From a virus: a DNA stretch of 64,000 bases. The position numbers and the translations under genes are program-made. Positions 67 to 30,734 of this stretch are shown here, piece by piece. The notes under the pieces are model-generated. The model had not been told where the DNA came from. It was given only the letters and a program-made list of their open reading frames with translations, and ran no database searches. The stretch lies in IMG/VR virus record IMGVR_UViG_3300037461_001787, positions 32,001-96,000 of that record, one strand, 5' to 3'. The number at the start of each line of letters is the position of its first letter. The first letter of the stretch is position 1.

Positions 67-3000
67 ATGATTGGAGATAACTCCATGCTTCCTATGACTA
101 AATTTTATTTTCTGGAACCTGAACCATTGATCAAGGCCCTCATCAAGATGAAGCCGGTGAAGGTGCAGCTCGGAAGCTGGAAGGGCCTGACCATTATCGG
201 TATTGGTCCCAGAAACGGGAAGATTGTGGGATACCGTAGTGATGGTAAGCCGATTTACGCTGGTTCTCATGCGGCAGAGCAGTTGGCTCTGATACAAAAA
301 CAGAAACATACTTACACTCCCGCACAGCAAGATGTGGAACTGGTCAAGTGGCTCCAGGCGCTCGGGCTGCAGGGAGCGGTGGATGCCGAGCAGGTGCATC
401 TGAGCAAAGAGGGAGCTACGTTGCTCCAGACTGCGTTCGGCGTGACGCCAGCGGCCCTCGGAGGGGGGAAGTGGGGAATTGGCAAGGCTCTACTACTTCC
501 CCATCTAGGAGAGCCTCTAAAGCCCACTGAGGAGCATATCACGGGATGGGCAGCGCAGATGGCTGCGGGAGATCAGGATGAGGTTTTCCCACCTCTGCAC
601 ACTTTGAAGGAAATACCTGCGGGGAAGTTTGTTGGCTCGCACAACAATCAGTTATTTTTGGACAAGAGTGGGAAAAAATGGGTATTCAAGCCTGCTGACC
701 CTACTATTGCGCGAGCAGAGGAAGCTGCTTCCAGAATTGGGCGGTTGTTGCTGGGCGATCGCATTCCCGCTGCCAAATATGTGGATGTAAAAGGAAAAGG
801 TGGGGTGCTCATCCAAGTTCTGGATGGGGAAGTATGGCAGGAATCGTCGAGCCAACATTCTGACCCACAGTTGTCCTACCTCAAAAAATACGCAGAGCAG
901 GTGGTGCAGCATGAGGTGGTCGATTGGCTGATCAGCAATCATGATTCCCACGCGGGCAATTTTTTGGCCGACGGGGAGAAGCTGGTAGCCATCGACAAGG
1001 GGCAGGCGTGGAAATGGATTGGGAACGACGTGCTTGATCCAGCGTATAAAGGGAGCAACCCAAGTTATCAGATTTACAATAAATTTTGGGAATCGGTGAA
1101 GCAAGGGAAAATCGGATCCGTTGGGCTCGTGGAGGCCGTAGCTGAAATAGTGAATCGTGCGGAAAAGATTTCTCCCGAGCAGTTTGCGTTACTCGTAGCG
1201 CCTTATGTATCGACGTGGGCGGGTGGGAAGGATGCCGACCCACATGAGCGTCTCCAGAAAATGGTTTCCAGATTGACCAATCTGAGGGGCGACTTCGAGC
1301 AATTTTTGAGTTCACAGCTTCAAAAACCGATCACACTGCCTAAGCCATCGGCGGTGCAGGTGAATTGGGAAACTCCGCCGGTACAGCCGCTGGGGGAAGA
1401 AAAAGGCAAAGTAAAACAGGAAGAAAAGCCGCAACCAGTCCAATTGACGACGCCGGCGTCAGAAAGCCAGCCTATTTTGCAGGAAGTGGAACATACTCCC
1501 GTTTTGTCGGCCAAACCAGCGGCGGGTTGGCCGCTGACGAAAAAGGGTGCGAAGACGGTGCAGGTAACTGTGCACCATCCGGGGCAGGTGCCTCCCACCA
1601 ATTGGCCGGTGGGGACGCCTGGGCCCGCTATGCATCTTACTTGCGGGTACAAAGGGGCACAGTATTCCTTGATGGTCGGGGAGGACATGGCGGCCAAAAA
1701 GCCGATCTTCACGGTGACCTATCCCAACGGTGACAAGGCGGATTTTAGCTCGCTGAATGCGGCGGGAGATTCGCTCTATCTGTACAATAAGGGGCTGCCT
1801 CTCAATCTGACTGCGACTGAAAAAAAGAAGCAGGGCATCAGCTTGGGCAGCAAGGTCTTTCAGCTCAAGCTCTTTGAGCAGGAGTTGGCCGAAGCTTACG
1901 GGAAGAAGGATGAGCCGGTGCCGGTAGCGGTGGCGACCCCCGAGCAGCTCGAAGAGCAGAAGGTCATTGAGCCCGAGCAAAAGCAGGCGACGGCGTTCCA
2001 GTTGCTGACCACGGCACAGCCAGCAGGCACGGTGCTGTCGATGTACGATCCAGCGCTGCCGCAGGAAATCAAAGAGTTCACGCTTGCGCATTCTGGCAAG
2101 AATCAGTTGAGCGGGGATTGGGATTTGGCGCTCACGCCCGGGCAAGTGGTGATTGGCAAGCACGACTTTTTTGGAGGTCCGGTTATTTTTGCAGCGAGGT
2201 TGTCGAAGGAAGGTAAGCCCGAGCTTTGGGGTTGGTGGGAAGGAGTCGAAGGAGCGCCGCAAAGCGGCCAATGGACGGGCGCGACGGCAAAGGTATTTCT
2301 GGAAAGTTTGGGGTTGAAAAACAACCCCGCCCTCGCCCAGGCCAAAAAGGAGTACGAGCAGGCGGTGCAGTTTGAGGCATCGCATTCTGACCCTATTGGT
2401 TCTCCACCGGAGGTAGTGCTTCCAGAAAGCGCGACAGTTCCAGAAACCGCGCCGAAGTTCACGGCGGGACCGCTTGCCGCGGGCACAACGATCAAGGTCA
2501 AAAAGAAGGTTCCGGGATACGACAAAAAGCAAGAGGTCGTGCTCACCGCGCTGCAGAATGGCAAGTTGCTGGTCGAAATTCCGGGGCAAACCGCACAGAC
2601 TTTTGACACGCTTTCGGCTGCAAGTGATCATGTCTGGGTTGTCCAGAAAGGATACACCGATGCGGCAGATTACAAAGCTCAAAACAAAACTAATAAAGTA
2701 CCCTCTGGGGGTGGCTGGAAGTTTTGGGGTGTCAGCCCGACGACAGCAACAGTTGGCGCGGGCGATCAATTGGGTGCTGGAGCTGTTGCTGCTCCTTCTG
2801 TTGCTGGGAATGATCTACCAGCTGTTGGAGCACCCGCCGAAGTTCCTGCTCCCGCTGGAGTGACGGCTCCTGCAGAGGCCAAAGAACAGGGCAAGGTGCC
2901 GTTCGATGCAGCGCTTGGAGAAAAGGACAGCCAAGGCTGGCAGGCGTTGAAAACGGCAACTACCCCAGTGATTGATGCGTTGCCAGCGGGGACAGTTCTT

Positions 3001-6000
3001 TCGTGGCCGAGCCATTGGCAGCAGGGCAACCACCAGGCCAAGAAAGAGGCAGATGGAAGTTGGGACTTTATTGCTGCGCCAAATCCTCAGATGGGCCCAT
3101 TTGGGAAGCAGAGCCTGTATCAGCTAATGGCTTATGTGTCCCTATCCGTTGGCGCAGGCCATCAGCCAAAAGTGAAGTTGCCGAATGAAGGCGGGCCGGA
3201 AGCTGCATCGGCTGCGCCAGTTCCAGAAAATTCCAAAACTGATCAGCAGGTGGCGTTGGTTGACGAAATCAAAGCCACAGTGAAGTTGCCGAAGCTTGCC
3301 GGGTTTGCGAAAACGGTTCAGTTGTTGAAGGATTTGCCCACGGGGATTGTGCTCAAAACAAAATCTGGTCTGGGGACGCAGTACGCTTACGCGAAGCAAG
3401 CCGATGGCACATGGTCAGTGAGTGGAGGGCTTACGACCGTTTCTAATTTTGCGATCGATGCCCTTGCGGCTGATTTGTGTTCTGAGAATGAGATTATTGT
3501 CGGCTTCACCCCCGCAAGCGAAGTAGCGCCGATTGTCCCTACGAGCGAAAAGTTCCCCACGGACGTGGTGGCGTTTTCTCAGTTGCCTGTCGGGACCTTT
3601 GTGCAGACCAAGGCGAATTGGGGCGCGATCACCAAATGCGTCAAAAAAGCGGACAACAAATGGGAAGTCACATTGGAGTCGGGGGAGTCGGTTACCTATA
3701 GCGACATAGATGCGTTCAATCTGATCAGCGCTGAAAAACTCGACACCTGGAATCCGAAAGGAGAGGTTTTATTCGCGCCAGAACAGGCGCCAGAATCGGG
3801 AGCATCCAACTGGCCATGGTTTGAGCTGCATCCAACAGAGGCAGCGGATAAAGTCAAACCGGATATCGAGGTCGGGGGAAAAGAATTCGACAAGCTGCCA
3901 GCGGGTACCAAACTACAGTTTGTGAAAGACAAGGGGCCGAATGCCCTCTTGCACACGGCGGTCAAGAACGACGAAGGAAAATGGGATTTCAAGTTTGCGC
4001 AAGGCATCAAAGAGACCTATTCCAATGCTACTGCAAAGATTGCGCTGGGGCATCTCAATGTGGGCATCAAACAGCTTGTCGGGCCGGGCAAAGATTTCAT
4101 CGAAGATGCAGCACCAAAACTGCAAGAGCCTAGCATTCCCCCAGGTCTCATTGCGCAGGATGTAGCTACGTTGCCATTGAACATTGAGAATTTTGTGGGT
4201 TTGCCTGTTGGCACTGTGGTGACAACGATCAGCAACGTGGGCTCGGGTTGGACTTACACCAAAACCGATACGGATACGTGGCAAGCGCAAAAGGGGGGAA
4301 CAGAGAACATTTTTTCTGGAATGATGAGCGCAACAGTTTTGGGGGATCTGAAGGACGAGCACATATTGACGTATGCCATCCCGTCTGTTGCGGATATTCC
4401 TGCCCCAATAAAGCCAGCGCAGAAGCTCGATAGCATCGTGAGCTACGTTGATCTGCCCGCGGCGGCTAAAGACGCTATGACCACAGTGATGGTCAATATT
4501 TTGAAGCTTCACAAAAACGATCCGACCAAATTGCAAAAGCCGAGCAATTGGCCGGCATGGGTACCGCCCACAGCGCTTATTCTCAAGGGCGTGATCGACG
4601 GCAAAGAGTTTTACGTTTTCAATTCGGCGATGGCCAAGAACAATGACGGATCACCGGCTACGCAATTTCGGTTTTCTGTGGTGCTGCCTGACGGCACTTT
4701 TTACACTGGAGTGCCAGATGAAAAGCCAATAATGGCGTTGGGCTCAGCCATGCAGCAGGCCGGAATTACGGCCAGTGGCATCGACGCCAAAGAGGCGCTC
4801 GGGTTGTATGGGGTGAGTTTTCCAACGGGCGCGACTGAAGCGGATCCATTTCTGGAAAAAGCATCTCCTGCTATTGGAGCGCTCAAACCGGTAGAGCAGA
4901 TGACCCCGGTGGAGAAGACCGCCAAAGTCAAAACCAACATGCCGCTCAAGCAAGCGCTCAAAATGCATCCGGGCCTGCAAGCGGGAACGCTCAAGGTGAA
5001 AAAGGCCAAGGGCGATGCGATGTATATTTGCTTGGATGGTGTCGAAGGGGCCAGCACCAAACTCTACGAGGCTCTCCAGGACCTCGGAGTGGCGCACGCG
5101 ATCAAGAATGTTGGTGGCATGCCCAAAGTCAACGCGAAGGGAGCTTTTGTAACGGTCGATAATTGGGTGCTTGATCAGGAAGTGACTGTGGAGACCACAG
5201 CGCTTGCTGCTTCCAGCGCGCAACATGCGCCGAGCGATCCCAATTGGCAGACGATGCCCAAAGCCAAAACGAAAAAGCAAACCAAGAAGCAGATCCAAGC
5301 GGCCAAAGAAGCGCAGCAGAAAATGGCAGAGGCCAAGGCCAAGGCTGGGCAGATCAAGGTCTGGGGAGAGCAGCATCCGCCAGTTTCCGATGCGGCTGAT
5401 CTGCAGTTGCTCGCTTATGTGCAGAAGGGATTTGATCTGTTTGGTATCCCTTACGGGGCCATTGCTCGGGCGGGGGATGGCAAGATATTTCTGGGCCACA
5501 AGACGCACTACGAGCAGCTTAAGAAATATTTGACGCAGCTCGATGCGGGTAAGGGCGCGGTTGTCCCGGTGAAGACTCCGCTGGGCGAGATGCTCTCGGT
5601 TGATCTTGTGCAGCTCAAACCGGCGTTGGAGAGCTTTAGTGGTCTGCCGATTGGTGGAGTGATCAAAGGGCCTGACGGGAAGGAATACCCGGCTGGAACT
5701 ACGTTCCAGAAAAAGGTGGTTGAGACCACGGTTGCGCAGTTGTTACCCGGAGAGCCGGGATTCTACAAGATCATGGATCACAAGGCTGAGCCCAACGTGC
5801 TTGGCTTGATCAAGATTTCTGGGACTGGCGCTGAGCAGATCGCGCAAATGAAAGCGATGATCGAGAAGTATGGGCTCGAAGGGCCTTTCCCGGCGCCGAA
5901 GGCTTCAGAGAATTCCATTATTCACTCGGTCTACAAAAAGTCGCTCCAGAAAATCTGGAAGACGGAGGAAGTGCATACGCCTACGATCCCAGAACAGCCG

Positions 6001-7398
6001 GCGGCTTTTGTCGCGGGGTCGTTGCCTTATTCTGAGCCCGCGAAGGTATGGGAGGAAGTTGGGGATGGGTCGGGGGATCTGGCCAATATCGCGGCGGTGA
6101 AACCGGCGTTGTTTGGGACCGTGTTGCGCATTGGCGCTCCAGGACAATTGCGTGATTTCAGCATTCGCTACCGTAAGGTCAAGGATCCCAATGGCAAACT
6201 CTACTATGAGTTCACTGGGGATCTGGTGACCTTCAATGGGTTGGGTACGGGATTGCAGTCGGGGACGGTCAAATACGCTTCTACCCAAAACAAGCCGATG
6301 TCTGGGATGGGTGAGAAGAGCGTCAAGGTGATGGACTATGATCCAGCCACGGGCGTGCATACAGAAGCGTCGGAAATCGGTGACGGACCTGACCCCAAAG
6401 GATTTTTCGGTACCACTGAGGCGGGCAGCTCGATTTCAGTTGTTCCGCCCAGCAGTGATCAAGATACGCTAAAAAACACATTCCGCGTGCGTATCCCGAT
6501 GGAGTTGGATCCGGTGGCGGAGTTGCGTGCGGCATTCCAGAAAATGGGTAAGGACCCCGATTTGGTGCTGGCTTCGATCAACGAAGACAGTGATCGCATT
6601 TTCAAAAAATCAATGTACGTTCGCGGTCTGATGGGAGCCAGTGGGTGGAATGAGGGGCAATTTACTCCGGAATTGATGCACAATGAGGAGTGGCTGGATG
6701 CACAGCTTGCAAAATTCGGGGCCAAAACGAAGGCCCAGAATTTGAAAGTGGTGAAAACATTCGATAACCAAGTTTCTGTAGTGGCTGATGATGTCGAGAA
6801 GTTCGCAGAGTGGAACTTCGCCTATGTGGGCTCAAAGTCGTTTGGGACAACACTCCAGCTGCTACAAGGTTCAGGCTGGTCCAGTCGGCGCAATCGATTG
6901 CTGCACGGAGTCTGGAACGGGGGGCAATCAGCGGGAGCTGATTTCCAAAACGGAGGAGCGAAAGGGACTTTCTTTCGCATCGCAGGTCCGGGGAAAGCGA
7001 TGCTCAGTTCCTATGAATGCCAGATCATTGTTCATCCACGGGTATTTCAGCGCACTGACTGGTGGCGATACAACCAAGATGGGTACGGCAACACCTCCTC
7101 ATACAACCAACATGGTGCTCCTGTGGCTAAATCTCCCAAACGGTATACGGGGGAATTGTCCACCACCAATGAGATCATTTTTGAAGGCGGTGTTTCCGCC
7201 CAGGACATTGTTGCGGTGGTCGTAAACGATGACACGCAACGCGCGGACATGATAGCCAAGCTCCAGGCGGCGGGGATTACTGAGCTGAATGGAAAACCGC
7301 TCAACGAGGTAATTATTCCGGAAGTCTACAAAGGCGCCAATGCATATGGAAACTCGGATGCCTTTGCCAAGGTGTTGGGGATCAAGAAAGGCGAGTAG
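67..7398 (+). CDS. Giant polyvalent protein, probably head-packaged: HipA/PI3-PI4K-like kinase + 2 RAMA/DUF2924-like domains + 5 LPxGT repeats + C-terminal ART-like domain
   Basis: Kinase motifs GSH..KWVFKP, E-AAS, DWLISNHDSHAGN, IDKG (~590-1330). RAMA signature GPLAAG..FDTLSAAS..GGGWKFW (~2467-2733). C-terminal LLQGSGWSSR..GGAKGTFFR..YGN..NEIIF. Lies just upstream of the head genes. The real start may be ATG 85 (GGAG at 73-76). Confidence 0.75.
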   Translation: MIGDNSMLPMTKFYFLEPEPLIKALIKMKPVKVQLGSWKGLTIIGIGPRNGKIVGYRSDGKPIYAGSHAAEQLALIQKQKHTYTPAQQDVELVKWLQALGLQGAVDAEQVHLSKEGATLLQTAFGVTPAALGGGKWGIGKALLLPHLGEPLKPTEEHITGWAAQMAAGDQDEVFPPLHTLKEIPAGKFVGSHNNQLFLDKSGKKWVFKPADPTIARAEEAASRIGRLLLGDRIPAAKYVDVKGKGGVLIQVLDGEVWQESSSQHSDPQLSYLKKYAEQVVQHEVVDWLISNHDSHAGNFLADGEKLVAIDKGQAWKWIGNDVLDPAYKGSNPSYQIYNKFWESVKQGKIGSVGLVEAVAEIVNRAEKISPEQFALLVAPYVSTWAGGKDADPHERLQKMVSRLTNLRGDFEQFLSSQLQKPITLPKPSAVQVNWETPPVQPLGEEKGKVKQEEKPQPVQLTTPASESQPILQEVEHTPVLSAKPAAGWPLTKKGAKTVQVTVHHPGQVPPTNWPVGTPGPAMHLTCGYKGAQYSLMVGEDMAAKKPIFTVTYPNGDKADFSSLNAAGDSLYLYNKGLPLNLTATEKKKQGISLGSKVFQLKLFEQELAEAYGKKDEPVPVAVATPEQLEEQKVIEPEQKQATAFQLLTTAQPAGTVLSMYDPALPQEIKEFTLAHSGKNQLSGDWDLALTPGQVVIGKHDFFGGPVIFAARLSKEGKPELWGWWEGVEGAPQSGQWTGATAKVFLESLGLKNNPALAQAKKEYEQAVQFEASHSDPIGSPPEVVLPESATVPETAPKFTAGPLAAGTTIKVKKKVPGYDKKQEVVLTALQNGKLLVEIPGQTAQTFDTLSAASDHVWVVQKGYTDAADYKAQNKTNKVPSGGGWKFWGVSPTTATVGAGDQLGAGAVAAPSVAGNDLPAVGAPAEVPAPAGVTAPAEAKEQGKVPFDAALGEKDSQGWQALKTATTPVIDALPAGTVLSWPSHWQQGNHQAKKEADGSWDFIAAPNPQMGPFGKQSLYQLMAYVSLSVGAGHQPKVKLPNEGGPEAASAAPVPENSKTDQQVALVDEIKATVKLPKLAGFAKTVQLLKDLPTGIVLKTKSGLGTQYAYAKQADGTWSVSGGLTTVSNFAIDALAADLCSENEIIVGFTPASEVAPIVPTSEKFPTDVVAFSQLPVGTFVQTKANWGAITKCVKKADNKWEVTLESGESVTYSDIDAFNLISAEKLDTWNPKGEVLFAPEQAPESGASNWPWFELHPTEAADKVKPDIEVGGKEFDKLPAGTKLQFVKDKGPNALLHTAVKNDEGKWDFKFAQGIKETYSNATAKIALGHLNVGIKQLVGPGKDFIEDAAPKLQEPSIPPGLIAQDVATLPLNIENFVGLPVGTVVTTISNVGSGWTYTKTDTDTWQAQKGGTENIFSGMMSATVLGDLKDEHILTYAIPSVADIPAPIKPAQKLDSIVSYVDLPAAAKDAMTTVMVNILKLHKNDPTKLQKPSNWPAWVPPTALILKGVIDGKEFYVFNSAMAKNNDGSPATQFRFSVVLPDGTFYTGVPDEKPIMALGSAMQQAGITASGIDAKEALGLYGVSFPTGATEADPFLEKASPAIGALKPVEQMTPVEKTAKVKTNMPLKQALKMHPGLQAGTLKVKKAKGDAMYICLDGVEGASTKLYEALQDLGVAHAIKNVGGMPKVNAKGAFVTVDNWVLDQEVTVETTALAASSAQHAPSDPNWQTMPKAKTKKQTKKQIQAAKEAQQKMAEAKAKAGQIKVWGEQHPPVSDAADLQLLAYVQKGFDLFGIPYGAIARAGDGKIFLGHKTHYEQLKKYLTQLDAGKGAVVPVKTPLGEMLSVDLVQLKPALESFSGLPIGGVIKGPDGKEYPAGTTFQKKVVETTVAQLLPGEPGFYKIMDHKAEPNVLGLIKISGTGAEQIAQMKAMIEKYGLEGPFPAPKASENSIIHSVYKKSLQKIWKTEEVHTPTIPEQPAAFVAGSLPYSEPAKVWEEVGDGSGDLANIAAVKPALFGTVLRIGAPGQLRDFSIRYRKVKDPNGKLYYEFTGDLVTFNGLGTGLQSGTVKYASTQNKPMSGMGEKSVKVMDYDPATGVHTEASEIGDGPDPKGFFGTTEAGSSISVVPPSSDQDTLKNTFRVRIPMELDPVAELRAAFQKMGKDPDLVLASINEDSDRIFKKSMYVRGLMGASGWNEGQFTPELMHNEEWLDAQLAKFGAKTKAQNLKVVKTFDNQVSVVADDVEKFAEWNFAYVGSKSFGTTLQLLQGSGWSSRRNRLLHGVWNGGQSAGADFQNGGAKGTFFRIAGPGKAMLSSYECQIIVHPRVFQRTDWWRYNQDGYGNTSSYNQHGAPVAKSPKRYTGELSTTNEIIFEGGVSAQDIVAVVVNDDTQRADMIAKLQAAGITELNGKPLNEVIIPEVYKGANAYGNSDAFAKVLGIKKGE

Positions 7399-7400: not shown

Positions 7401-7736
7401 ATGCGCACTGATTTGGCCTACGAGGTACACTGTGTTTCCGATCCTGCGTCAGCCATTGGGCGTATCGGAACGATCATCCCGCGGCCAGGTGGAATCTTGC
7501 TCGCGACGGATGGTCATTCGCAATTTCTGGAAATAGACGACCCGGATGATCAGCTCATCGATGACGAATCGACGGGATACGTGGAAATCACCACAGCCAA
7601 GGGCCGTTATTTTCTGAATGCCATTGATCGTGACGCGGGCGAGGAACTTTCCCCTTTTTTCCAGAACGCTCCGGCCGAGTTTGACAGCGATGAGGCGGCC
7701 CAGGCTTTTTACCAAAAATTATTGGCGCAATTATGA
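7401..7736 (+). CDS. Small acidic hypothetical protein, candidate immunity/antidote for the upstream effector
   Basis: 111 aa, D/E-rich, starts 2 nt after the giant ORF stop; function inferred from position only. Confidence 0.55.
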   Translation: MRTDLAYEVHCVSDPASAIGRIGTIIPRPGGILLATDGHSQFLEIDDPDDQLIDDESTGYVEITTAKGRYFLNAIDRDAGEELSPFFQNAPAEFDSDEAAQAFYQKLLAQL

Positions 7737-7942
7737 GATGCCCGCACTGTGACAATCACCTGCTCCAGAAATCTGGAAGTCGGGTGCGGGTGCGGACACA
7801 AGGGCCCATTGAGTTTGAGGGGGCGCATTGTCGGGCAAAATGCTATTGGTGTGGTTCGGCGGTGGACTTGCCGCTCAAAATCCAAGAGGGTGCTCCTATC
7901 GCCCGAGAGCAGTTTCTTCTATCTTCACGGAAAAGAGATTGA
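7733..7942 (+). CDS. Com-like zinc-ribbon protein
   Basis: MRCPHCDNHLL...KCYWCG (two CxxC motifs); ATGA overlap with the upstream gene. Confidence 0.6.
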   Translation: MRCPHCDNHLLQKSGSRVRVRTQGPIEFEGAHCRAKCYWCGSAVDLPLKIQEGAPIAREQFLLSSRKRD

Positions 7943-7966
7943 CAGAATTCTGGAATCGGATACGTT
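7939..7966 (+). promoter_or_regulatory. Sigma70-type promoter for the head operon
   Basis: TTGACA (7939-44), 16-nt spacer containing TTCTGGAA, TACGTT (7961-66). Confidence 0.5.
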
Positions 7967-8018
7967 GAAATCAATCAGAGAAGCGCGGCGATAGGCCCGT
8001 TAAGGTTACTACCGGTCG

Positions 8019-8069: not shown

Positions 8070-8900
8070 ATGGAGTCATTCGCTTTCGATGTGCCGGTAG
8101 ATTTTTTCGAAAAGGCCGATGCCGAGCCGGGTAAAGAGCGACGTATTGGCGGCATCGCGACCATCGAGACCAAAGACCGTCAGGGGGAAGTGATTCTCGC
8201 CCGCGGCGTGGATTTCAGTGATTTTGTCCAAAATGGTTGGTTCAACGACAACCATTCGAAGCGCACCACCGACATTCTCGGTTACCCCGAGCGGGCCCGG
8301 TTTTTTCGCAAAGGGGAAGAGCTGCCCAGTGGAGAGAAAGCTCAGGCTGCGGGGCATTGGGTAGAGGGTTATTTGCTTGCGACCCCCGAAGCCGATCGAG
8401 TCTGGGAATTGGGCAAGGCGCTTGCACAAACCAAGCGGCGGCTGGGGTTTTCGGTGGAAGGGAAGATTGAGAAGCGTGTTGGCCCAGCGCAAAAGACCAT
8501 TGCCAAGGCGTTGGTGAGGAATATTGCCATTACCAATTGTCCTGTTAATGCTGGGGCTCGGATGGAAATTCTGGCCAAGAGCCTCTACCACCTCGGGCTG
8601 GACGCGCCGGTGGAAAAGTCACTCGGCATGGGCGTTGTTTCTGGGAATCCTCCGGTTCCGCCGGCGATGATGGGCCCGCAGAGCGGCATGGGCGCCGGAC
8701 GGGTGCTTGCTGGCCAAAGCCTGGAACACGATGAGATCGATACTGTCTCTGACGAGGACGAGAAAAAGAAAAAACGGCGCATCAAGAAGTCACTGACCGA
8801 TAGCGAGGCGTATGCGTGGCTGCGCGCCCGGCTGCCCCACGCCAAACCGGAACAAATCGGGCGCATCATCACGCTGACCCGCGAGCGCAAGCGGCGGTAA
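8070..8900 (+). CDS. Prohead protease (SPO1/Twort-like)
   Basis: IGGIAT..DRQGE..GWFNDNH..LGFSVEGK..IAITNCPVN motifs; position before scaffold and capsid. Confidence 0.9.
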   Translation: MESFAFDVPVDFFEKADAEPGKERRIGGIATIETKDRQGEVILARGVDFSDFVQNGWFNDNHSKRTTDILGYPERARFFRKGEELPSGEKAQAAGHWVEGYLLATPEADRVWELGKALAQTKRRLGFSVEGKIEKRVGPAQKTIAKALVRNIAITNCPVNAGARMEILAKSLYHLGLDAPVEKSLGMGVVSGNPPVPPAMMGPQSGMGAGRVLAGQSLEHDEIDTVSDEDEKKKKRRIKKSLTDSEAYAWLRARLPHAKPEQIGRIITLTRERKRR

Positions 8901-8921: not shown

Positions 8922-9806
8922 ATGGCAGACAAGTTGAAGAAAGCGCAAGACGAGGAAGAGGAAGGTGGGGGGATGGACAACCCCGATGAGCAGATGGCCG
9001 CTGAGGAAGATTCGGAGAAGGGTTGTGGCGCGAAGAAAAGCGCTTGCGGCACAGCCGAGAAGGGTTGTGGCACAGCCGAGAAGGGCTGCAAAAAGTCGGA
9101 TGAGCTGACAGAGGATGATCTGCAGAAGTCCCTTGATCAGCTCTCGGCATTGACGGAAGACAAGACCATCTCCCGCAAGCAGCAATTGCTTACCAAGGCT
9201 CAGGGGAGCGAGCTGAGCAAGAGCGAGCAAAACGAGCTGTTTGAGTTGCTTGGCAAGAGCGAGCAGACCAAGCAGTCGCTCAGCGGTGAAGTCACAAAGG
9301 GCTTGGGCAATAATGACACCTTGCAAAAGGCACTTGATGTTTCCGATTTTCTGCAAGAGCAGCACTCCGAGCTGATCAAATCACTCGGAGTGCTGGCTGA
9401 GGCACTGGAGAAGAGCGATTCGCGGCAGCATGAGTTCAATCTGGTGCTCGCCCGCGCGGTCTCGGGCATTGGCCAGTTGACGAAGAGCCTGGGTGAGCGA
9501 GTCGGCGTCATCGAGGCGCAACCGGCACGCGGTCCCAAGAGTCGCGGAGTTGCTGGCGCCCAGCCGCTGGAGAAGAGTTTTGTCGGCGCCAATGCTCAGG
9601 GAACGCAGCTGAGCAAGGCCGCGGTGCTCGATGAGCTGGAAAACATGGTCCAGGAGTCGATGCAGAAATCCCTCGGTGGGATGACCGAAGATGGTTTCGA
9701 TTTGGTCACCGCCAGCTCAAAGTACGAGCAATTCAACCTCATCAGCCAAGGCCTGCTCGACCAGGTGCAGAAGCGCATCCAGGAGCGAAAGGTCGCTGCC
9801 CGCTGA
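8922..9806 (+). CDS. Scaffold-like head protein with many (L/I/M)xK(S/A) sites
   Basis: Acidic and helical, between protease and MCP; LQKS, LTKA, LSKS, LGKS, LQKA, LIKS, LEKS, LTKS, LSKA, MQKS. Confidence 0.75.
   Translation: MADKLKKAQDEEEEGGGMDNPDEQMAAEEDSEKGCGAKKSACGTAEKGCGTAEKGCKKSDELTEDDLQKSLDQLSALTEDKTISRKQQLLTKAQGSELSKSEQNELFELLGKSEQTKQSLSGEVTKGLGNNDTLQKALDVSDFLQEQHSELIKSLGVLAEALEKSDSRQHEFNLVLARAVSGIGQLTKSLGERVGVIEAQPARGPKSRGVAGAQPLEKSFVGANAQGTQLSKAAVLDELENMVQESMQKSLGGMTEDGFDLVTASSKYEQFNLISQGLLDQVQKRIQERKVAAR
9012..9092 (+). repeat. 21-bp coding tandem repeat (EKGCG/TAEKGC)
   Basis: ggcacagccgagaagggttgt followed by ggcacagccgagaagggctgc, plus a degenerate earlier copy. Confidence 0.8.
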
Positions 9807-9863: not shown

Positions 9864-11294
9864 ATGTTCGGATTGAACCAGGTGAGCTGGAAAGACTATG
9901 AGGGCGTCGAAGGTTTTGGCGCCGCTACCCAGCAGGATGTGGACGAGTTGAACAAAGCGCTGACCGCCGGTCAGGCCATCCAGGGCCCGGGAGGCACTGC
10001 GGGGGATGGCTTCGCGCTGCGCGTCGAATCGCTGGAACGGACCCTGAAAAACACCACGTACAAGATGGAGCACATTCGGTTCTGGAAGGCCTTGCCCAAG
10101 TTGCCAGCTTACAACACGGTCGAAGAGCACAATGAGATGAGCCAGTACGGGGCGAACCCGGATGCGGGATTCATCTCGGAAGGCGATCTGCCCGAAGAGG
10201 ACGATTCGATCTACACCCGTAAGTACGCAGTGGTGAAGTACCTCGGCACCACGCGGAAGGTCACCCACGTCATGTCGCTGATCAAGCCTGCCCACGGCAA
10301 CGTGGTCGCGCAAGAGACGGTCAACGGAACCATGCACCTGCTGCGCGTGATGGAGCGGGCCCTGTTCTACGGAGACAGCAGCTTGTCCGCTCTCCAGTTC
10401 GACGGCTTCGAGAAGTTGATGAAGGATTTGTGCCCGACAACCAACGTCATCGATCTGCGTGGTTTGCCGTTGAGTGAGGACGTGCTCACCGATTCAGCGC
10501 TGACCATTCAGGACGCGCCCAACTACGGCACGCCCACCCATCTGTATCTCAATCCCAAGGTCAAGACGGATCTGGTCAAGACTTTCTTCCCCAAAGAACG
10601 CCACGACACGTTCCAGAAACAGGGTGGATTCGTCGGTCTCGACATCAAGGGCTTCACGTCCCCTGCGGGTGACGTGCTCTTCGAACCCGATGTGTTCATC
10701 ACCGATGGTGGCGGCGCGAATGCCAATGCGGTTGGCGATGCGTCAAAGCGTCCGGGTTCGCCGTCTTTCACGACCAATCCGACCACGCCGGCTGAGACCA
10801 CCGGGAAGTTCACGGCGGACGATGCCGGTGACTATCGCTATGCGGTGGTCGCGGTGAATCGCTACGGGCGTTCGGCTGCGGTGGCTTACGGTTCCGCAGT
10901 GACCGCTCACACGGGAGATAAGGTCACTTTTGGTCTGACCCCTTCGAGCGCGACAACGGGCTGGTACGAGATCTATCGGACGCCGAAGAACGGCGCGATC
11001 GGCACAGCACGCCTTATCATGCGCGTTCCCAATGCGGCAGGCGCGGGTGAGACCACCATCAACGATCTCAACTGGAACCTGCCGGGCTGCACAAGCGCGT
11101 TCTTGTTCCAGCTCAATCTGGAGAGCATGAGCTTCAAACAGCTCGCTCCCATGGTCAAAATTCCGTTGGCGACCATCGACAGCTCGATTCGCTGGATGCA
11201 GCTGCTCTATGGCGTGCCTGTGCTCTACACCCCGGGCAAGAACGTCCTGATCCGCAATATCGGAAGAGCCGCAGGATACGTGGGCGCTCCGTAA
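9864..11294 (+). CDS. Major capsid protein (SPO1/Twort/phage K Cps-like)
   Basis: ELNKALTAG..ALRVESLE..F..EG..KYLGTTRKV..ERALFYGD..QFDG pattern typical of Herelleviridae capsids; strong AGGAGG RBS. Confidence 0.92.
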   Translation: MFGLNQVSWKDYEGVEGFGAATQQDVDELNKALTAGQAIQGPGGTAGDGFALRVESLERTLKNTTYKMEHIRFWKALPKLPAYNTVEEHNEMSQYGANPDAGFISEGDLPEEDDSIYTRKYAVVKYLGTTRKVTHVMSLIKPAHGNVVAQETVNGTMHLLRVMERALFYGDSSLSALQFDGFEKLMKDLCPTTNVIDLRGLPLSEDVLTDSALTIQDAPNYGTPTHLYLNPKVKTDLVKTFFPKERHDTFQKQGGFVGLDIKGFTSPAGDVLFEPDVFITDGGGANANAVGDASKRPGSPSFTTNPTTPAETTGKFTADDAGDYRYAVVAVNRYGRSAAVAYGSAVTAHTGDKVTFGLTPSSATTGWYEIYRTPKNGAIGTARLIMRVPNAAGAGETTINDLNWNLPGCTSAFLFQLNLESMSFKQLAPMVKIPLATIDSSIRWMQLLYGVPVLYTPGKNVLIRNIGRAAGYVGAP

Positions 11295-14254: not shown

Positions 14255-15862
14255 ATGGCAATCAAGAAATTCCTTTTCATGGACGGCACTTACGGTTACC
14301 AACATGAGCAAGAATCGACGGACGGCCTCAAGCTCCCCAGTCTGGTTCTGGGCGCGGGTTCCGAATCCGCTGGCAATATCCAGATGTCGGGTACGGGAAA
14401 GGTAATTGGTCTGGCCAACGGTACCGATGCGGCCGATGCAATCAACAAGAGCCAGCTGGATGCGGCGATAGCGGGCTATGAATGGCAGGCGCCAGTTTCG
14501 GTGCTGAAAATGAAGTCGGATGTCGCACGCACACCCACGGGAGCGATCATCGAAGGTTCGGGTGGAACTGGAATCGTCAATCTGACCACGGGCAATGCTT
14601 TCACCGTGGCCATCGACGGCGAAACCCCGGTGGTTGTCACTCTCGCCTCTGCTCCGGCTGATGTGGCAGCGGCAATCGCGGCCATCAATTCGCTCTATGC
14701 GGCGGGTGGCGGAACGGGTGGAACCATCGCGGTCGATGGCGGTGGCGGACAGATCGACATCAAGAGCAACACCACAGGCACGGGTTCGAGCGTGGCGCTC
14801 ACCTCGGTGCACGCCAACTGGGCTGAGGTCGGCATCACTGCTGGTACCGACGCTGGCACCAACGATTTGCCCACCGCGGGTGCTGCGGGCGAGGCGTGGG
14901 TCGTCAATGGCTGGGGCACTGGCTACAACAACGGCGACATCGTGGAGTGGGACGGGAGCACCTGGAATGTGGTGCTGTCCAATTCTGGTGGGGAGCCCCC
15001 CAATGCTACCCGTGTAGCGGTCATCAGCGCCAGTGCGGCTGGCTCGTTTGCGGCTCATGAGAATACCATCGGGACGTACAATGCGACGACCGACACTTGG
15101 TCTTTCTTGGCTGCGACGGACGGGGACGCGGTGCTGGTCTCGGGCGAGAACAGTGTTTACGAAAACATCGGTTTCGTATACGACACTGGCTCAAGTTGGG
15201 TGGCTTTTACGGGTCCAGCCAGCATTCCGGATGCGACTGGTGCCTCCGGTGGTGGGATCAAAGGCAAGGCGACCTTTGACACTGACAAAGGGCTTGCGGT
15301 TGCTTCGGGCGTGGTTTCGGCCAAGCTCGCTGCAGCGGGTTCGGGTACTGGCGGTTTGGAATTCAACGGCTCGGGTGCGATGCAGCTGGATCTGGATGCC
15401 AGTGGAGCGCTGGATCTGAGCGCCAGTGGGCTCGCCGTGAAGGTGGATGGCTCGACCATCACGATCAATGGTTCCAATCAGCTGACAGCCGCTGTGGCGG
15501 AGTCGGAGCGGACGGAAAAGGATTACGCTGTTGGTGAAGCCATTGCCAAGGGTGATCCGGTCTATTTCTCGGCGAATGACACTGTGTCCAAGGCCGATGC
15601 GGGCAATGAGACGAAAGCACGCACGGTCGGTATTGCGCGCATCGCCATCCCCAGCGGCAGCGGGCCCGTGTGCTTCTCGGGTTTGGTCACGGGTGTGCTC
15701 ACCACGGCTACGGTCAACACCCCTTACTACTTGGCTTCTGGCGGCGGCTTGACCGCCACTCGGCCGACGGGTAACGTCCGCATTATCCGCATTGGGTATG
15801 CGGCCAGCGCGTCCGATCTGTTGGTCCAGATTACCGACTTTGGCCGTGGTGTTGCTGCGTAA
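14255..15862 (+). CDS. Gly/Ala/Thr-rich fibre with C-terminal cement-like domain (possible head fibre)
   Basis: LANGTDAADAINKSQLD fibre motif; GDIVEWDGSTW; C-terminal IAKGDPVY..VGIA..YYLASGGGLT. Confidence 0.65.
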   Translation: MAIKKFLFMDGTYGYQHEQESTDGLKLPSLVLGAGSESAGNIQMSGTGKVIGLANGTDAADAINKSQLDAAIAGYEWQAPVSVLKMKSDVARTPTGAIIEGSGGTGIVNLTTGNAFTVAIDGETPVVVTLASAPADVAAAIAAINSLYAAGGGTGGTIAVDGGGGQIDIKSNTTGTGSSVALTSVHANWAEVGITAGTDAGTNDLPTAGAAGEAWVVNGWGTGYNNGDIVEWDGSTWNVVLSNSGGEPPNATRVAVISASAAGSFAAHENTIGTYNATTDTWSFLAATDGDAVLVSGENSVYENIGFVYDTGSSWVAFTGPASIPDATGASGGGIKGKATFDTDKGLAVASGVVSAKLAAAGSGTGGLEFNGSGAMQLDLDASGALDLSASGLAVKVDGSTITINGSNQLTAAVAESERTEKDYAVGEAIAKGDPVYFSANDTVSKADAGNETKARTVGIARIAIPSGSGPVCFSGLVTGVLTTATVNTPYYLASGGGLTATRPTGNVRIIRIGYAASASDLLVQITDFGRGVAA

Positions 15863-19685: not shown

Positions 19686-20127
19686 GGTGGTGTTGGCGAT
19701 TGCGGGCGGCGTAGTTACGCTGATTTCTTCTATCGTGGGATTTTTGATGCGCTCGCTCCTCCAGACCCATCGAGAAAAAACCGAGCAGAAGTACATGGAG
19801 CTTGGCAACGTGATTTCTGGCCTCATCATTCAGCGCAAAGAATGTGAAGAACGTGAATTGCGGGCGGTTTCGCGACTGGATGAGACCATGGAGAAATTGC
19901 GGGATCGATGGGAGCAATTTGTGCGCGAAGATACAGCCATGGAATCAACGCGGGGGCGTAAAGTGGATGCGCTTTTCAACGTTGTCGATCACATTCGCGA
20001 AGAGATGCGTCAGTTGCGACCGGCATTGCTGCAGCGCTTGGAAGATCTGCACACCCGCAGCAAACTGGATCTGCGCCAGGAGCTACGCGACTATGTGCGA
20101 GAATTGTGCGAAAAAAACGATGCTTGA
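19663..20127 (+). CDS. Single-TM coiled-coil membrane protein (holin/XhlA-like?)
   Basis: Hydrophobic aa 9-29 followed by a coiled coil. Confidence 0.55.
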   Translation: MQQSISLEVVLAIAGGVVTLISSIVGFLMRSLLQTHREKTEQKYMELGNVISGLIIQRKECEERELRAVSRLDETMEKLRDRWEQFVREDTAMESTRGRKVDALFNVVDHIREEMRQLRPALLQRLEDLHTRSKLDLRQELRDYVRELCEKNDA

Positions 20128-20314
20128 CGCGGAGATCGAGACATCGCGGTATAGTCCGCTGCGATTTCATGCCGAGACCTTTCGGCACATGGATGATTTG
20201 CATGGGCAGTTAGAAGATCTGCTAGGAGAGTTACAACGGCTACGCAGCAATGACGAAGGATTGGATCTAATTTGGTACGCTAAAACCATAGTGGACAATT
20301 CGAAATGGCACTAG
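20120..20314 (+). CDS. Small hypothetical protein
   Basis: ATG at 20120 fills the gap between overlapping neighbours. Confidence 0.45.
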   Translation: MLDAEIETSRYSPLRFHAETFRHMDDLHGQLEDLLGELQRLRSNDEGLDLIWYAKTIVDNSKWH

Positions 20315-20550
20315 TGATCACTCGCCGCACGGTTTACTGCCCACTCACCCCAGCCCCAGATGGGGTCACTCAGATTTTCTGGACAAGCGTGGAGTATATT
20401 TCTGGAACGGTATCGGTCTGGCGAAATGGGGTGCGTTTGGTAGCCAGCTGGGATACCGGATATGAGGAGCTGGGAAATCGCCAAGTGCGTTTCCGCGAGG
20501 CGCCTTTGATTGGGGATAGCTTGACTGCGAAGTTCGAGAGGAAACCATGA
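20305..20550 (+). CDS. Small virion protein (DG..F..V..NG..P..GD domain)
   Basis: PDGVTQIF..VWRNGVR..FREAPLIGDSL; paralog of the next gene. Confidence 0.6.
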   Translation: MALVITRRTVYCPLTPAPDGVTQIFWTSVEYISGTVSVWRNGVRLVASWDTGYEELGNRQVRFREAPLIGDSLTAKFERKP

Positions 20551-20987
20551 TCACGCTCAAGGAGACTGCCGGCGATACGCTGCTTGGGGCAGTCGATGGG
20601 GTCAACACGGAGTTTTACGTTTCTTTCGATTTTACTCCAGAAACGGTGCAGGTGTTCCTGAACGGGCGGCTGAAGATTCGCGATTGGGACGATGGATTTT
20701 TGGTGCAGGGTGCGCGCAAGGTGGTGATGAAGGAGCCCCCTCTCGCGGGAGATTCTCTGGAAATCGAGTACGCATCTACTGTGCGCACTGGAGGCGGCGC
20801 CGATGGGGGTTGCCCGAGCGCCCCGGAGGCCACTATCATGCAACCAGACACCCTCACGGGCGAGGACACCCCGGGGATGGGCAGTGCGGAATTAGGTTCC
20901 ATTTTGGCTGCCCAGTCCGAATCAGTGCCGGTGTTGGTGAATCTGTCGGAGCGACCGAGCTTGTTTGTCTCGGCGGTGGAGGATTAG
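20547..20987 (+). CDS. Virion protein with the same domain as upstream plus an acidic tail
   Basis: VDGVNTEF..VFLNGRL..MKEPPLAGDSL. Confidence 0.6.
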   Translation: MITLKETAGDTLLGAVDGVNTEFYVSFDFTPETVQVFLNGRLKIRDWDDGFLVQGARKVVMKEPPLAGDSLEIEYASTVRTGGGADGGCPSAPEATIMQPDTLTGEDTPGMGSAELGSILAAQSESVPVLVNLSERPSLFVSAVED

Positions 20988-22016
20988 ATGGCGGTCATCA
21001 CGCTAAAGATAGTCGTCGCAAATCTGGAAACAGTGCAGCGGACGTTCAACCAGATCAAAATCTATCGCTCCATCACTGGCATCGAGGGGGTTTACTCTGA
21101 GATCACGGGTCCCAGTTCGCGCATCGCGCTGGAGACGGGGAAGATGGTCTACGAGTATACCGATCAAGCTGGGGCTGCGGGCTATTACTACAAGTCGAGT
21201 TATTTTCATTCGGTCTCACTGCTGGAATCTTCGCTGTCTGCGGCGCAGCAGGGCGAAGGGGATTTCGCGCTGGACATCGTATCGGTCGCGGAGCTGAAAA
21301 CCAACTACCTCTATGGGCTCGATCTGACCGATGACCAGGGCAATGAAATGCCTGATTTGCTCTTCGAATGGTTCATAAAAAGCGCAGTGAGTTGGATGGA
21401 GCATAGGCTGCAAATTCCACTTCGCCCCAAACCAGTGACATCCGAATTACACGATTACTATGTGGAAGATTTTCGGCAGTATATTTGGATCAAAACTAAG
21501 GATTACCCAATCCTCGATGTCGATGAATTGCGCATCGTCATTCCTGGGGTTGGAGGGACTGTTTTGCAACAATTTGGGCGAGAAAATTTGCATGTCGAAA
21601 AAGAGGCGGGGCACGTTCAAGTGGTCCCAGGAACTACGGGAGCTGGGATGGTAATGATGGGCTCGGGAGTGCCTTGGGTACCCAATATGTTCGGGTCCCG
21701 CCGTTTTATTCCCGGAGCTTTTCAGATCGATTACACTGCAGGTTTTGAGAGTGGCGAGATCCCAATGGTTCTAAGAGATGCCATCGCCAAACAAGCTAGT
21801 TTTGGGCCATTAAATCCGCTGGGAGATTTGCTTGGCGGCGCAGGTATTGCGTCGCAGAATCTTTCGATTGATGGGCTTTCTCAAGGGTATACTACAACTT
21901 CATCTGCGACCATGGCTGGCTATGGCGCACGGCTTTTCCAGTATGAGAAAGAATTGAAGGCTGTCATTCCTACGTTGGAGAAATGGTACAAGGGATTGCG
22001 CATGGTGGTGGCATGA
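20988..22016 (+). CDS. Head completion / head-tail adaptor
   Basis: IKSAVSWMEHRL..IDYTAGF..IP..LSIDGLSQ adaptor pattern; position. Confidence 0.7.
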   Translation: MAVITLKIVVANLETVQRTFNQIKIYRSITGIEGVYSEITGPSSRIALETGKMVYEYTDQAGAAGYYYKSSYFHSVSLLESSLSAAQQGEGDFALDIVSVAELKTNYLYGLDLTDDQGNEMPDLLFEWFIKSAVSWMEHRLQIPLRPKPVTSELHDYYVEDFRQYIWIKTKDYPILDVDELRIVIPGVGGTVLQQFGRENLHVEKEAGHVQVVPGTTGAGMVMMGSGVPWVPNMFGSRRFIPGAFQIDYTAGFESGEIPMVLRDAIAKQASFGPLNPLGDLLGGAGIASQNLSIDGLSQGYTTTSSATMAGYGARLFQYEKELKAVIPTLEKWYKGLRMVVA

Positions 22017-22837
22017 CCATCCGGCCGACCAGACCAGTCTTTCCAGTTTCTGGAATTCCGTCGGGAATGAAAGAGACGATGAGCCGGGCGGATTTTTTGA
22101 CCGACTCTTTCGCTTTTTTGGTCGAGACCAAAGGGTATTTGCTGTCCTGGGAGCGGGCGAGTATTTGCCCCTGTCGGCCGGTGGTTCCTACCACGGAACA
22201 GCCGGATCCCAATTGCGCACTTTGTAAAGGAGCGGGCTGGCTTTATTTCGGGCTGGAGACGCCTATCACCGATTTTTCTGACATTGGTGATCTGGACGAA
22301 GTGCAGCAGAAGATCGTGCAGCAGAATAACGCCATGGTCATCCGCGGGGTGATTACCAGCATCCAAAACGACTACAATCCTTGGGATCGTTTTGGCAACT
22401 GGATGTCTGGATCGATGATGCTGACCGTGCGGCATGAAAACAAGATCGGCTATTACGATCGATTGACCATTCTGGATAGTTCGATTGTCTACGTAGAAGT
22501 TCGCGACGCTACCGGCGACAACACTCTCCCGCTACGCTATTTGGCGACGGGGGTGAACTACCTGCGTAGTTTTGATCGGGTGTACAAAGCGGATGTGGAT
22601 TTTGACATCGTGGAAGGGCACATCCGATTTTACGAGGGCAAGGCGCCATCGAGTGGAGAGCGGTTGTCGATCCATTATATTTGCCATCCGACGGTATTGG
22701 TGGTGGAGCACCCGCATGTGATTCGCCAGACCACAATCCAGAAAAAAGTTCAGAAACCGAAAACTGTGCGAGGGGACCCAGCGGGGATGCCGATTCAAGC
22801 CATGGTGCGCTATGATTTCATCCCGGAGCCGTCATGA
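22013..22837 (+). CDS. Neck protein (SPO1/Twort-like, CPC...CxxC)
   Basis: WERASICPC..PDPNCALCKGAGW..IGYYDRLT; ATGA overlap. Confidence 0.75.
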   Translation: MTIRPTRPVFPVSGIPSGMKETMSRADFLTDSFAFLVETKGYLLSWERASICPCRPVVPTTEQPDPNCALCKGAGWLYFGLETPITDFSDIGDLDEVQQKIVQQNNAMVIRGVITSIQNDYNPWDRFGNWMSGSMMLTVRHENKIGYYDRLTILDSSIVYVEVRDATGDNTLPLRYLATGVNYLRSFDRVYKADVDFDIVEGHIRFYEGKAPSSGERLSIHYICHPTVLVVEHPHVIRQTTIQKKVQKPKTVRGDPAGMPIQAMVRYDFIPEPS

Positions 22838-23673: not shown

Positions 23674-24362
23674 TCCAGCGTTATCTATACGATTTGCTCA
23701 AAGAAGGTTTTGACAAGATTACTCAAGATCCGCTTTTGATCGAAGACATCTTTCTGGACAATTTTGGATTGGCGGAATCTGAGGTCAGGGCGATCAAGAC
23801 CTTTTACGCTGCGCACCCGGTGTACATTGTCAACGGCTACGCCCGTCAGGACAATAGGTATCCTGTGATCGCCATCACCTTGGGGTCCGAAGGAGAAGCG
23901 GAGACTGTTTTGGGCGACGACGCTGGAATGATCGATGATCCAGACGATCATTTGTACCAATGCGATGTCACCTCGGCACTTTGGAAACATACCTACTTTC
24001 TAACGGTGATCTCTGAGCATCCAGACGTGACAGCCTACTACTACGAGATGGCCAAACCCATCTTGCTGGCTGGTCTGGAATGGTTGACCACCAAAGGGCT
24101 TTCAGACTTCAGCCTGTCAGGGGAAGAATTGTTGTTAGAACCAACGTACATGCCGGAGCATTTGTTCCTGCGGCGGCTCATCTTTACGGCTCAGCGCGAG
24201 TTGTGGCAACCGGATCGGAAATCGCGGTTGCTCAAGGCGTTCAAGGTGGGGGGCATTGCGGTTGACAAATCCGGGAGCCCGAGTGATGTTGGTGGGGTCA
24301 ATACCAACGTAATTCCCTATCTTGACGACGGAGATGAGTCTGATGCCGGAGACCAAAGTTGA
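23670..24362 (+). CDS. Tail terminator-like protein
   Basis: ATGA overlap; YPVIAITLGSE; lies before the sheath. Confidence 0.6.
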   Translation: MIQRYLYDLLKEGFDKITQDPLLIEDIFLDNFGLAESEVRAIKTFYAAHPVYIVNGYARQDNRYPVIAITLGSEGEAETVLGDDAGMIDDPDDHLYQCDVTSALWKHTYFLTVISEHPDVTAYYYEMAKPILLAGLEWLTTKGLSDFSLSGEELLLEPTYMPEHLFLRRLIFTAQRELWQPDRKSRLLKAFKVGGIAVDKSGSPSDVGGVNTNVIPYLDDGDESDAGDQS

Positions 24363-24609: not shown

Positions 24610-24619
24610 GGAGCGCGCG

Positions 24620-27386: not shown

Positions 27387-27419
27387 GACAGAATGCTCGG
27401 GCCTATAGTCTGAGCGAGT

Positions 27420-28370: not shown

Positions 28371-28372
28371 CG

Positions 28373-30733: not shown

Positions 30734-30734
30734 C

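Follow-up and report, generated by a model that had tools for sequence, protein, structure and literature searches.

The window analysed here, 64,000 nt in length, comprises bases 32001-96000 of a single IMG/VR virus record of 109,277 bp that is complete by CheckV. Near its start, on the plus strand, lies a giant gene (67-7398) encoding a polyvalent protein in which, according to structure models and profile comparisons, one polypeptide combines a kinase fold, an ADP-ribosyltransferase (ART) fold and RAMA-like domains. The earlier note on this DNA, made from its letters alone, had described a 2443-aa open reading frame (ORF) adjoining head genes; the frame is indeed intact, and head genes lie directly downstream. 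The features of the gene are as follows, in window positions and amino acids (aa).

67-7398, plus strand: gene of the giant polyvalent protein, with 2443 aa and no internal stop when read from ATG-67, or 2437 aa from the probable start ATG-85
154-576, plus strand: N-terminal alpha/beta domain, aa ~30-170, from a high-confidence model, with family hidden Markov model (HMM) matches in 48 homologues
574-1326, plus strand: PI4K-II/CtkA/HipA-like kinase, aa 170-420, from model, fold comparison and conserved K208, E219, D293, H295, N298 and D310
1558-1890, plus strand: first RAMA-like domain (copy 1), aa ~498-608, matching copy 2 at hhalign 94%
1960-2286, plus strand: outlying copy of the LPxGT...W repeat, aa ~632-740, from a repeat search
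2449-2742, plus strand: RAMA domain, copy 2, aa 795-892, with the motifs F-x-T-L-S-A-A-S and GGGWKFWG, hhalign 92.2%, E 5.8e-7
2929-4401, plus strand: run of five LPxGT...W repeats, tandem-dispersed, aa ~955-1445; no other part of the family varies as much
4534-4866, plus strand: third RAMA-like domain (copy 3), aa ~1490-1600, matching copy 1 at hhalign 88.6%
4924-5211, plus strand: conserved domain of ~95 aa, aa 1620-1715, with a K/A/Q-rich linker after it, from family conservation and domain HMMs
5359-6441, plus strand: first part of the C-terminal module (C1-C3), aa 1765-2125, with a GPDGKEYPxGTTF motif, from family conservation
5758-5961, plus strand: shared ~65-aa 'HK-dP...VlKV' module, aa ~1898-1965, hmmsearch E 5e-7 to 4e-5
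6442-6783, plus strand: helical domain C4, aa 2126-2239, ahead of the ART domain, from the model; it accompanies the ART domain in some shorter proteins
6784-7353, plus strand: DarT-like ART fold (C5), aa 2240-2429, from model, fold comparison and conserved residues

The start of the giant gene is ambiguous, with candidate ATG codons at 67, 85 and 94. Because homologue alignments begin at M7 and a GGAG lies 10 nt 5′ of ATG-85, this codon is the likelier start and probably the true one. The public copy of the protein begins at ATG-94 and has 2434 aa.

The kinase domain is supported by both fold and motif. An AlphaFold model of aa 1-440, built from an alignment of 40 sequences, reached a predicted local distance difference test (pLDDT) score of 91.8, and its fold-search lists are filled by kinases. 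The top Protein Data Bank (PDB) entries in Foldseek are PI4K-II alpha, H. pylori CtkA, CurKC, HipA, Legionella MavQ and Vps34 (E from 3e-5, probability 1.0). In VIA-align, a further fold comparison, aa 170-420 superimpose on PI4K-II alpha over 223 residues (Z 15.4, root-mean-square deviation 3.7, 18% identity), followed by CtkA (Z 14.5), MavQ (Z 12.9) and HipA (Z 11.8). The ATP-binding Lys (K208, within VFKP), the D-x-H-x-x-N of the catalytic loop (D293-S-H295-A-G-N298, within HDSHAGN) and the metal-binding Asp (D310, within IDKG) are all present, the loop being read against the HipA motif, N-x-D-x-H-x-x-N. Together with E219, these residues show little or no variation across alignments of 40-60 sequences that reach down to proteins of only 20-25% identity. 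The catalytic residue set is complete, and kinase activity is predicted; the earlier identification of HipA/PI3K-like catalytic motifs (VFKP, E, DSHAGN and IDKG) was right at the level of fold and motif. The Pfam models HipA_C and PI3_PI4_kinase find no match in the giant protein or in 11 homologues. More distant kinase homologues show sub-threshold matches to these two models (E 0.002-0.045), one such stretch lying in Onyinye gp16.

At the other end of the protein, aa 2126-2443 were modelled with AlphaFold from an alignment of 70 sequences (pLDDT 90.4, predicted template modelling score 0.89). The top Foldseek PDB neighbours of this model are E. coli DarT1 (E 3.8e-4), the M. tuberculosis and Thermosipho DarT proteins, Tpt1, SopF, PARP1, CteC and ScARP. 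In a VIA-align comparison that is independent of Foldseek and covers 48,161 representative PDB chains, four DarT entries are the only neighbours of the domain with Z>=8 (Z 8.5-10.8), aligned over 149-164 residues, which is nearly the whole DarT chain. They are followed by Tpt1 (Z 6.7), SopF (6.3) and OspC3/CopC (5-6), with Z falling to 2.8 at rank 50. Every neighbour with Z>=5 is an ART-fold enzyme, sharing the split beta-sheet ART core, and the C-terminal region that had been likened to ADP-ribosyltransferases does model as an ART fold. Among viral proteins in BFVD, the neighbours of the model include betabaculovirus and iridovirus ORFs as well as phage proteins, one of them annotated as a 'minor capsid protein'. 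Two more specific assignments were rejected: an Alt-like R-S-E ART, with no such neighbours near the top of the fold list, and a Tpt1/KptA-like RNA-repair enzyme, whose Z of 6.7 lies below DarT and whose context does not fit.

Conserved residues of the domain comprise S2288, D2292, GG2296-7, R2304, R2329-T-D2331-W, D2338 and N2368-E2369. Of these, E2369 is invariant and opens a beta strand (EIIFEGG). When compared with a profile of 12 Pfam-defined DarT genes, E2369 aligned with the catalytic Glu of the DarT AE[FL]L motif in a sub-threshold local match (hhalign 28%), and in a forced global alignment (0.8%) the IL..G, GG and TD motifs also line up. Searches of PDB sequences, using phmmer or profiles, returned nothing significant for the giant protein, the family alignment or the repeat alignment; the ART alignment found only ScARP, at a sub-threshold score, with E2369 placed on the Glu of its Q-x-E. 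Because neither the DarT (PF14487) nor the ART-PolyVal (PF18760) Pfam model finds a match in the phage genome, we describe C5 as an ART fold that is nearest to DarT but belongs to an unnamed sequence family. The domain is basic, with an isoelectric point (pI) of 9.2.

The RAMA assignment rests most directly on copy 2. Against a profile of 7 Pfam-defined RAMA domains from Actinomycetota genomes other than two unpublished ones, this copy aligned through the F-x-S-L-S-A-A and GW-x-FW motifs, while three unrelated domains of the giant protein scored <=0.4%; a language-model search with aa 790-895 also returned RAMA clusters (cosine 0.86), which we treat as a lead only. Copies 1 and 3 have no direct match to the RAMA profile (1.6% for copy 1) and are linked to it only via copy 2 or copy 1. 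The Pfam RAMA model (PF18755) finds no match in the giant protein or the phage genome. The RAMA domain that the earlier note placed at ~2467-2733 (aa ~800-889) is therefore well matched to true RAMA domains (hhalign 92%), whereas its 'DUF2924-like RAMA' at ~1620-1880 stands only in part: the region is homologous to RAMA copy 2 (94%), but it matches neither DUF2924 nor RAMA directly. The note's P/A/E-rich linkers are visible in the translation as P/A/E/K-rich ones, and its five repeats become six, one outlying and five in a run. These LPxGT...K..dG.W repeats lie at aa ~651, 972, 1090, 1173, 1277 and 1379, with no PDB sequence match.

Elsewhere in the window, a 357-aa protein (60514-61587, plus strand) with a long basic low-complexity linker matches Pfam DUF2924 above cut-off (E 5.9e-11). 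It is the sole DUF2924 match in the genome, and hhalign found no match between it and the small RAMA-type domains of the giant protein.

We found that the giant protein belongs to a large family. Twelve full-length relatives (P0002-P0013) came from a word-indexed search, in which the kinase alone gave one match and RAMA copy 2 alone gave none; a scan of viral contigs with the single protein as query returned nothing. An exhaustive phmmer search with aa 1765-2443 matched 614 cluster representatives (E<=1e-3). When domain HMMs derived from the alignment of the family were applied to the best 150 relatives, about 60 proved to be 1,700-3,200 aa long and to keep the same domain order: an N-terminal domain, the kinase, 'RAMA1', in most cases another copy of it, a middle that varies, and a five-part C-terminal module, C1-C5, of ~680 aa that finishes in the ART fold. 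The kinase, the RAMA copies and the stretch aa 1765-2443 are the best conserved parts, and the repeat region (aa 900-1620) is the least conserved. Searching a protein atlas with aa 1765-2125 gave no usable match, and hhalign detected no homology between the N-terminal domain and C1, C2 or C3.

The genes that follow the giant gene in the window lead directly into the head module:

7401-7736, plus strand: acidic protein, 111 aa, pI 4.1, beginning 2 nt past the giant gene stop; candidate immunity or inhibitor protein
7733-7942, plus strand: four-Cys zinc-ribbon protein, 69 aa, its start overlapping the stop of the 111-aa ORF (ATGA); kept before the protease gene in related phages
8070-8900, plus strand: head maturation protease, PHROGs E 2.8e-33
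8922-9806, plus strand: scaffold protein, PHROGs E 5.6e-6
9864-11294, plus strand: major capsid protein, PHROGs E 1.5e-98

The 111-aa acidic protein has no Pfam or NCBIfam match. In phage contigs, an acidic ORF of 104-142 aa (pI 4.1-4.8) nevertheless lies within a few bases past the stop of every C5-ending gene examined, including genes for architectures as different as 945-aa, 1,326-aa and >3,481-aa proteins. It directly follows the ART-ending gene at nine loci (L006-L013 and L019) and comes after other architectures at four more (L014-L017). One of these, L019, is a contig of a Gemmatimonadaceae metagenome-assembled genome that was absent from model building (E 1.9e-10). At two loci in bacterial genomes, a different small ORF occupies the same position. 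No cognate DarG macrodomain or NADAR gene was found next to the ART gene, its downstream neighbour being the acidic ORF itself. The conservation of this ORF after the ART domain across architectures suggests a toxin-immunity arrangement, in which the acidic protein would be a candidate immunity protein or inhibitor of the ART.

Upstream of the giant gene, the genome carries the portal gene, a 1840-aa SNF2-helicase protein, 452-aa and 149-aa ORFs, a 1446-aa protein with inorganic pyrophosphatase (InPase) and nucleotidyltransferase (NTase) domains, and a 103-aa ORF. Two of these genes, both upstream of the window and given in genome positions, encode large multidomain proteins themselves:

19849-25371: 1840-aa SNF2-helicase polyvalent protein with a LAGLIDADG/Hom_end intein, from domain matches
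27213-31553: 1446-aa polyvalent protein in which InPase and poly(A)-polymerase-head domains accompany an intein (Intein_splicing and Hint_2 matches)

Counting the SNF2 and InPase/NTase genes upstream, the interval between portal and protease therefore holds three giant genes for multidomain proteins, of which this one is the third. This synteny (polyvalent genes, giant gene, acidic ORF, zinc ribbon, protease, scaffold and major capsid protein) is kept in 8 related IMG/VR contigs. The proteins of the interval also have sequence in common. The ~65-aa module of the giant protein (consensus g.kI.pHK.dP.l.VlKV ... G[vl]e ... G..y.l) recurs in four other proteins of the phage, namely the SNF2 protein, the 452-aa ORF, the InPase/NTase protein and a 136-aa ORF, three of the four within the portal-protease interval. 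In hmmsearch these carriers lie outside the window, at genome positions 338-748, 19825-25368, 25143-26696 and 27210-31550. The module may be a common packaging or assembly element.

Further links to phage heads come from other architectures of the same domains. Many shorter proteins with Phage_Mu_F have C5 as their last domain, and an architecture of ~1,100 aa recurs in other phages in which MuF/SPP1-gp7 is joined to the same kinase, Rho_N, C4 and C5. At the other extreme, C5 ends a protein of >3,481 aa that also has domains of the RNase T, UvrD and NUDIX families (L016/L017, 8-10453). NUDIX domains co-occur with the DarT-like ART in several other architectures (L016/L017, P0092 and P0125). 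The same kinase is found by tblastn in mycobacteriophage proteins with a different ART, ADPrib_exo_Tox, some of which are annotated as 'minor capsid and ADP-ribosyltransferase fusion'. From the position of the giant gene between portal and protease, the MuF/SPP1-gp7 fusions elsewhere and the module common to neighbouring polyvalent proteins, we infer that the giant protein is delivered with the virion.

A close comparison is with these MuF-kinase-ART proteins (prophiFSQJ01-1 gp54, McProf gp54, Onyinye gp16 and metagenomic P0090-type proteins). Their kinase is homologous to that of the giant protein (tblastn E 1e-10 to 9e-13, HMM E 1e-24 to 1e-27), and they share the order of kinase, linker or DNA-binding module, and C-terminal ART. 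The prophage-type gp54 proteins are encoded directly after the portal gene and adjoin head genes, and Onyinye gp16 is encoded upstream of terminase. In contrast to the giant protein, these proteins have only ~1,000-1,350 aa, carry a head domain (VG15 or MuF) at the N-terminus, and lack RAMA domains and LPxGT repeats; the mycobacteriophage ART belongs to the C3/VIP2-type ADPrib_exo_Tox family and is unrelated in sequence to the one described here. Since the same kinase is paired with two unrelated ART families, the two activities may cooperate, and the recurrent pairing suggests that they work together.

We consider it somewhat more probable than not (roughly 60%) that the giant protein is a head-associated polyvalent effector of this ~109-kb tailed phage, in which a kinase, nucleic-acid-binding modules and a DarT-like ART would be packaged and injected. 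The protein would be made late, with the acidic downstream protein keeping it harmless in the producing cell, and would be built into the procapsid and ejected along with the DNA. Its RAMA and repeat region would tether it to nucleic acid. The kinase would then phosphorylate one or more host proteins with ATP as donor, and the ART would move ADP-ribose from NAD+ onto a host macromolecule, either a protein or, by its likeness to DarT, single-stranded DNA (ssDNA) or RNA. Both activities together might favour take-over of the host or blunt its defence.

Several points weigh against this reading. HipA-type kinases and DarT-like ARTs are bacterial growth-arresting toxins, which is awkward for a role in favour of replication. 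No part of the giant protein, nor of 11 homologues, is recognised by Pfam, PHROGs or NCBIfam. The match to the DarT profile (28%, local) is weak, and, as regards the classical triads (H-Y-E or R-S-E), the Glu alone is anchored, with R2304, R2329, S2288 and D2331 conserved. Finally, because no MuF domain (PF04233) is detectable in the giant protein or in this genome, the physical link of the protein to the capsid is indirect.

A head-associated effector of this kind would nonetheless have precedents among polyvalent proteins and ARTs that are packaged in heads (PMC5512222, PMC9503650), as well as in Bxa, a MuF-type ART whose immunity gene lies downstream of it (PMC11699363). For the polyvalent proteins, which occur in phages and in conjugative elements, packaging and injection have been predicted (Iyer, Burroughs, Anand, de Souza and Aravind 2017, PMC5512222). 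Like the giant protein, they are giant multidomain polypeptides that join unrelated enzymes to DNA-binding domains and are encoded with virion genes; ART and kinase are among their listed themes, and the neighbours here carry the InPase, SNF2 and NTase domains typical of the class. They differ in that their kinase belongs to a truncated Ser/Thr/Tyr-kinase clade, whereas ours is PI4K-II/CtkA/HipA-like, and in that their ARTs are of the Tox-ART-HYD2 or ART-PolyVal type, whereas ours has a DarT-like structure and no match to PF18760. Neither a zincin peptidase nor MuF was detected in the giant protein. Two further phage proteins, both invoked in the earlier note, offer partial parallels. T4 Alt is likewise a head-packaged, injected ART, but it is a protein-modifying R-S-E enzyme of a different clade and is not part of a giant multidomain protein. 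T7 gp0.7 is a phage take-over protein kinase, but it is not packaged, comes from a different kinase lineage and again stands outside any giant multidomain protein.

As to what the ART modifies, nucleic acid is a credible target because the nearest structures are the DarT DNA ADP-ribosyltransferases. DarT of the DarTG system (PF14487; PDB 7omu, 8baq, 7omv and 7yk3) is the best structural match, with the Glu of the fifth core strand aligned to its catalytic Glu, and its domain is basic as well. The differences are that the ART here falls outside the DarT sequence family, ends a ~2,400-aa phage protein where DarT is a free toxin, has a small acidic protein as partner rather than a DarG macrodomain or NADAR, and is encoded by a phage rather than serving host defence.

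A tentative alternative, which we hold possible but do not favour, develops this likeness: the C-terminal domain would be a nucleic-acid ART like DarT, which modifies ssDNA bases, or CmdT, which modifies mRNA, and the RAMA domains would recruit it to DNA, with host DNA or RNA or the phage's own genome being modified. Consistent with this, four DarT chains head the structural neighbours (Z 8.5-10.8) where protein-modifying ARTs reach <=7.1, motif agreement with DarT profiles, though weak, extends over IL..G, GG, TD and the Glu, and the basic domain faces an acidic partner. A RAMA domain here stands between kinase and ART, in the place taken by Rho_N in the MuF-kinase-ART proteins. The baculovirus and iridovirus ORFs among the viral neighbours are probably members of the 'ORF28' family, which Iyer et al. 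2022 have related to DarT (PMC9503650). On the other side stand the missing Pfam DarT match with an hhalign value of only 28%, the lack of a DarG macrodomain or NADAR partner, and the fold itself, which does not fix the substrate, as SopF, OspC3 and CteC, all neighbours of the domain, modify proteins. A common fold leaves the substrate of an ART unfixed. Overall, the fold and the company of domains point modestly to nucleic acid rather than protein as the substrate.

The DNA of the window contains a conspicuous repeated word that could be drawn into this alternative. The 9-mer TTTCTGGAA occurs in 62 copies, on both strands and over the whole window, against 0.74 expected from shuffles, or about once per kb. 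Its positions include 51, 109, 2296, 2420 and 2438, so that the giant gene has one copy on either side of its start, and the 9-mer holds a TNTC-type DarT2 motif. In the boldest form of the idea, the DarT-like ART would mark DNA at TTTCTGGAA, but any tie between enzyme and 9-mer is pure speculation. Doubtful, too, is the more specific combination of a virion-delivered, DarT-like nucleic-acid ART that is tethered to DNA by RAMA, partnered by a co-injected HipA-type kinase and restrained by the acidic protein in the producing cell. If it were true, the phage would have turned the chemistry of DarT, an anti-phage toxin, to offence.

The conserved acidic ORF also bears on an explanation that we regard as unlikely, in which the giant protein is a phage-borne polymorphic toxin of the MuF or Bxa type. 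Its ART and kinase would be released at lysis or carried by particles against competing bacteria, with the acidic protein as immunity and any benefit to the infecting phage secondary. The toxin-like C-terminal domain with a small conserved ORF within 2 nt would fit such a system, as would the occurrence of the same ART at the end of many MuF proteins with varied N-termini and of relatives in bacterial genomes, probably in prophages, and there are precedents (PMC5576092, PMC11699363). In Bacteroides prophages, the MuF-type ART Bxa has its immunity gene, Bsi, directly downstream (PMC11699363), an arrangement that resembles ours in pairing a head-associated ART toxin with a small protein that blocks it. 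Bxa, however, comes from another ART family and is short, with neither a kinase nor a RAMA domain, and no second immunity gene of the ADP-ribosylhydrolase type is seen here. Likewise, the N-terminal MuF/SPP1-gp7 domain of MuF polymorphic toxins (Jamet et al. 2017) is not found in the giant protein, nor is a MuF domain found anywhere in its genome, though it does occur in the shorter proteins with the same kinase and ART. The entire ~2,400-aa architecture, and not just a swappable tip, is conserved in more than 60 clusters, unlike in toxins shuffled as cassettes, and the parts of the phage examined gave no evidence of an integrase.

Least probable is that the giant protein is mainly a structural internal head, scaffold or ejection protein with inactive relics of enzymes, for although it is very large and repeat-rich, is encoded inside the head module, has long low-complexity linkers and varies in repeat number among homologues, its kinase K/D/N/D and ART Glu/Arg residues vary little or not at all among relatives that share only 20-35% identity, which is unexpected in pseudoenzymes.

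Proteins of the polyvalent type, some of them with kinases, are already known, as are ARTs packaged in heads and MuF toxins that come with an immunity gene. In the literature searched, we found no description of this large family, which is invisible to family databases, of a PI4K/HipA-type kinase in polyvalent proteins, of a DarT-like ART on a protein of the phage structural module, of a kinase-ART pairing repeated over two ART families, or of RAMA placed between kinase and ART. Although a wide distribution is predicted for polyvalent effectors packaged in heads, almost none has been studied; the present family alone numbers about 600 clusters with the ART domain and more than 60 with the full architecture, covered by no family database. 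It places HipA-type phosphorylation and DarT-type ADP-ribosylation, activities best known from bacterial growth-arrest toxins, on one phage protein together with DNA-reader domains. With domain boundaries, candidate catalytic residues and a candidate inhibitor in hand, the question of what phages inject besides DNA becomes testable for this family.

Two further ORFs of the window deserve mention. An 81-aa frame at 7749-7994 was rejected as a gene, being a spurious frame over the zinc-ribbon gene. Beyond the head genes, a 535-aa protein (14255-15862, plus strand) shows a weak match to YadA_stalk, the coiled stalk of trimeric autotransporters, and is probably a fibre-like virion protein.

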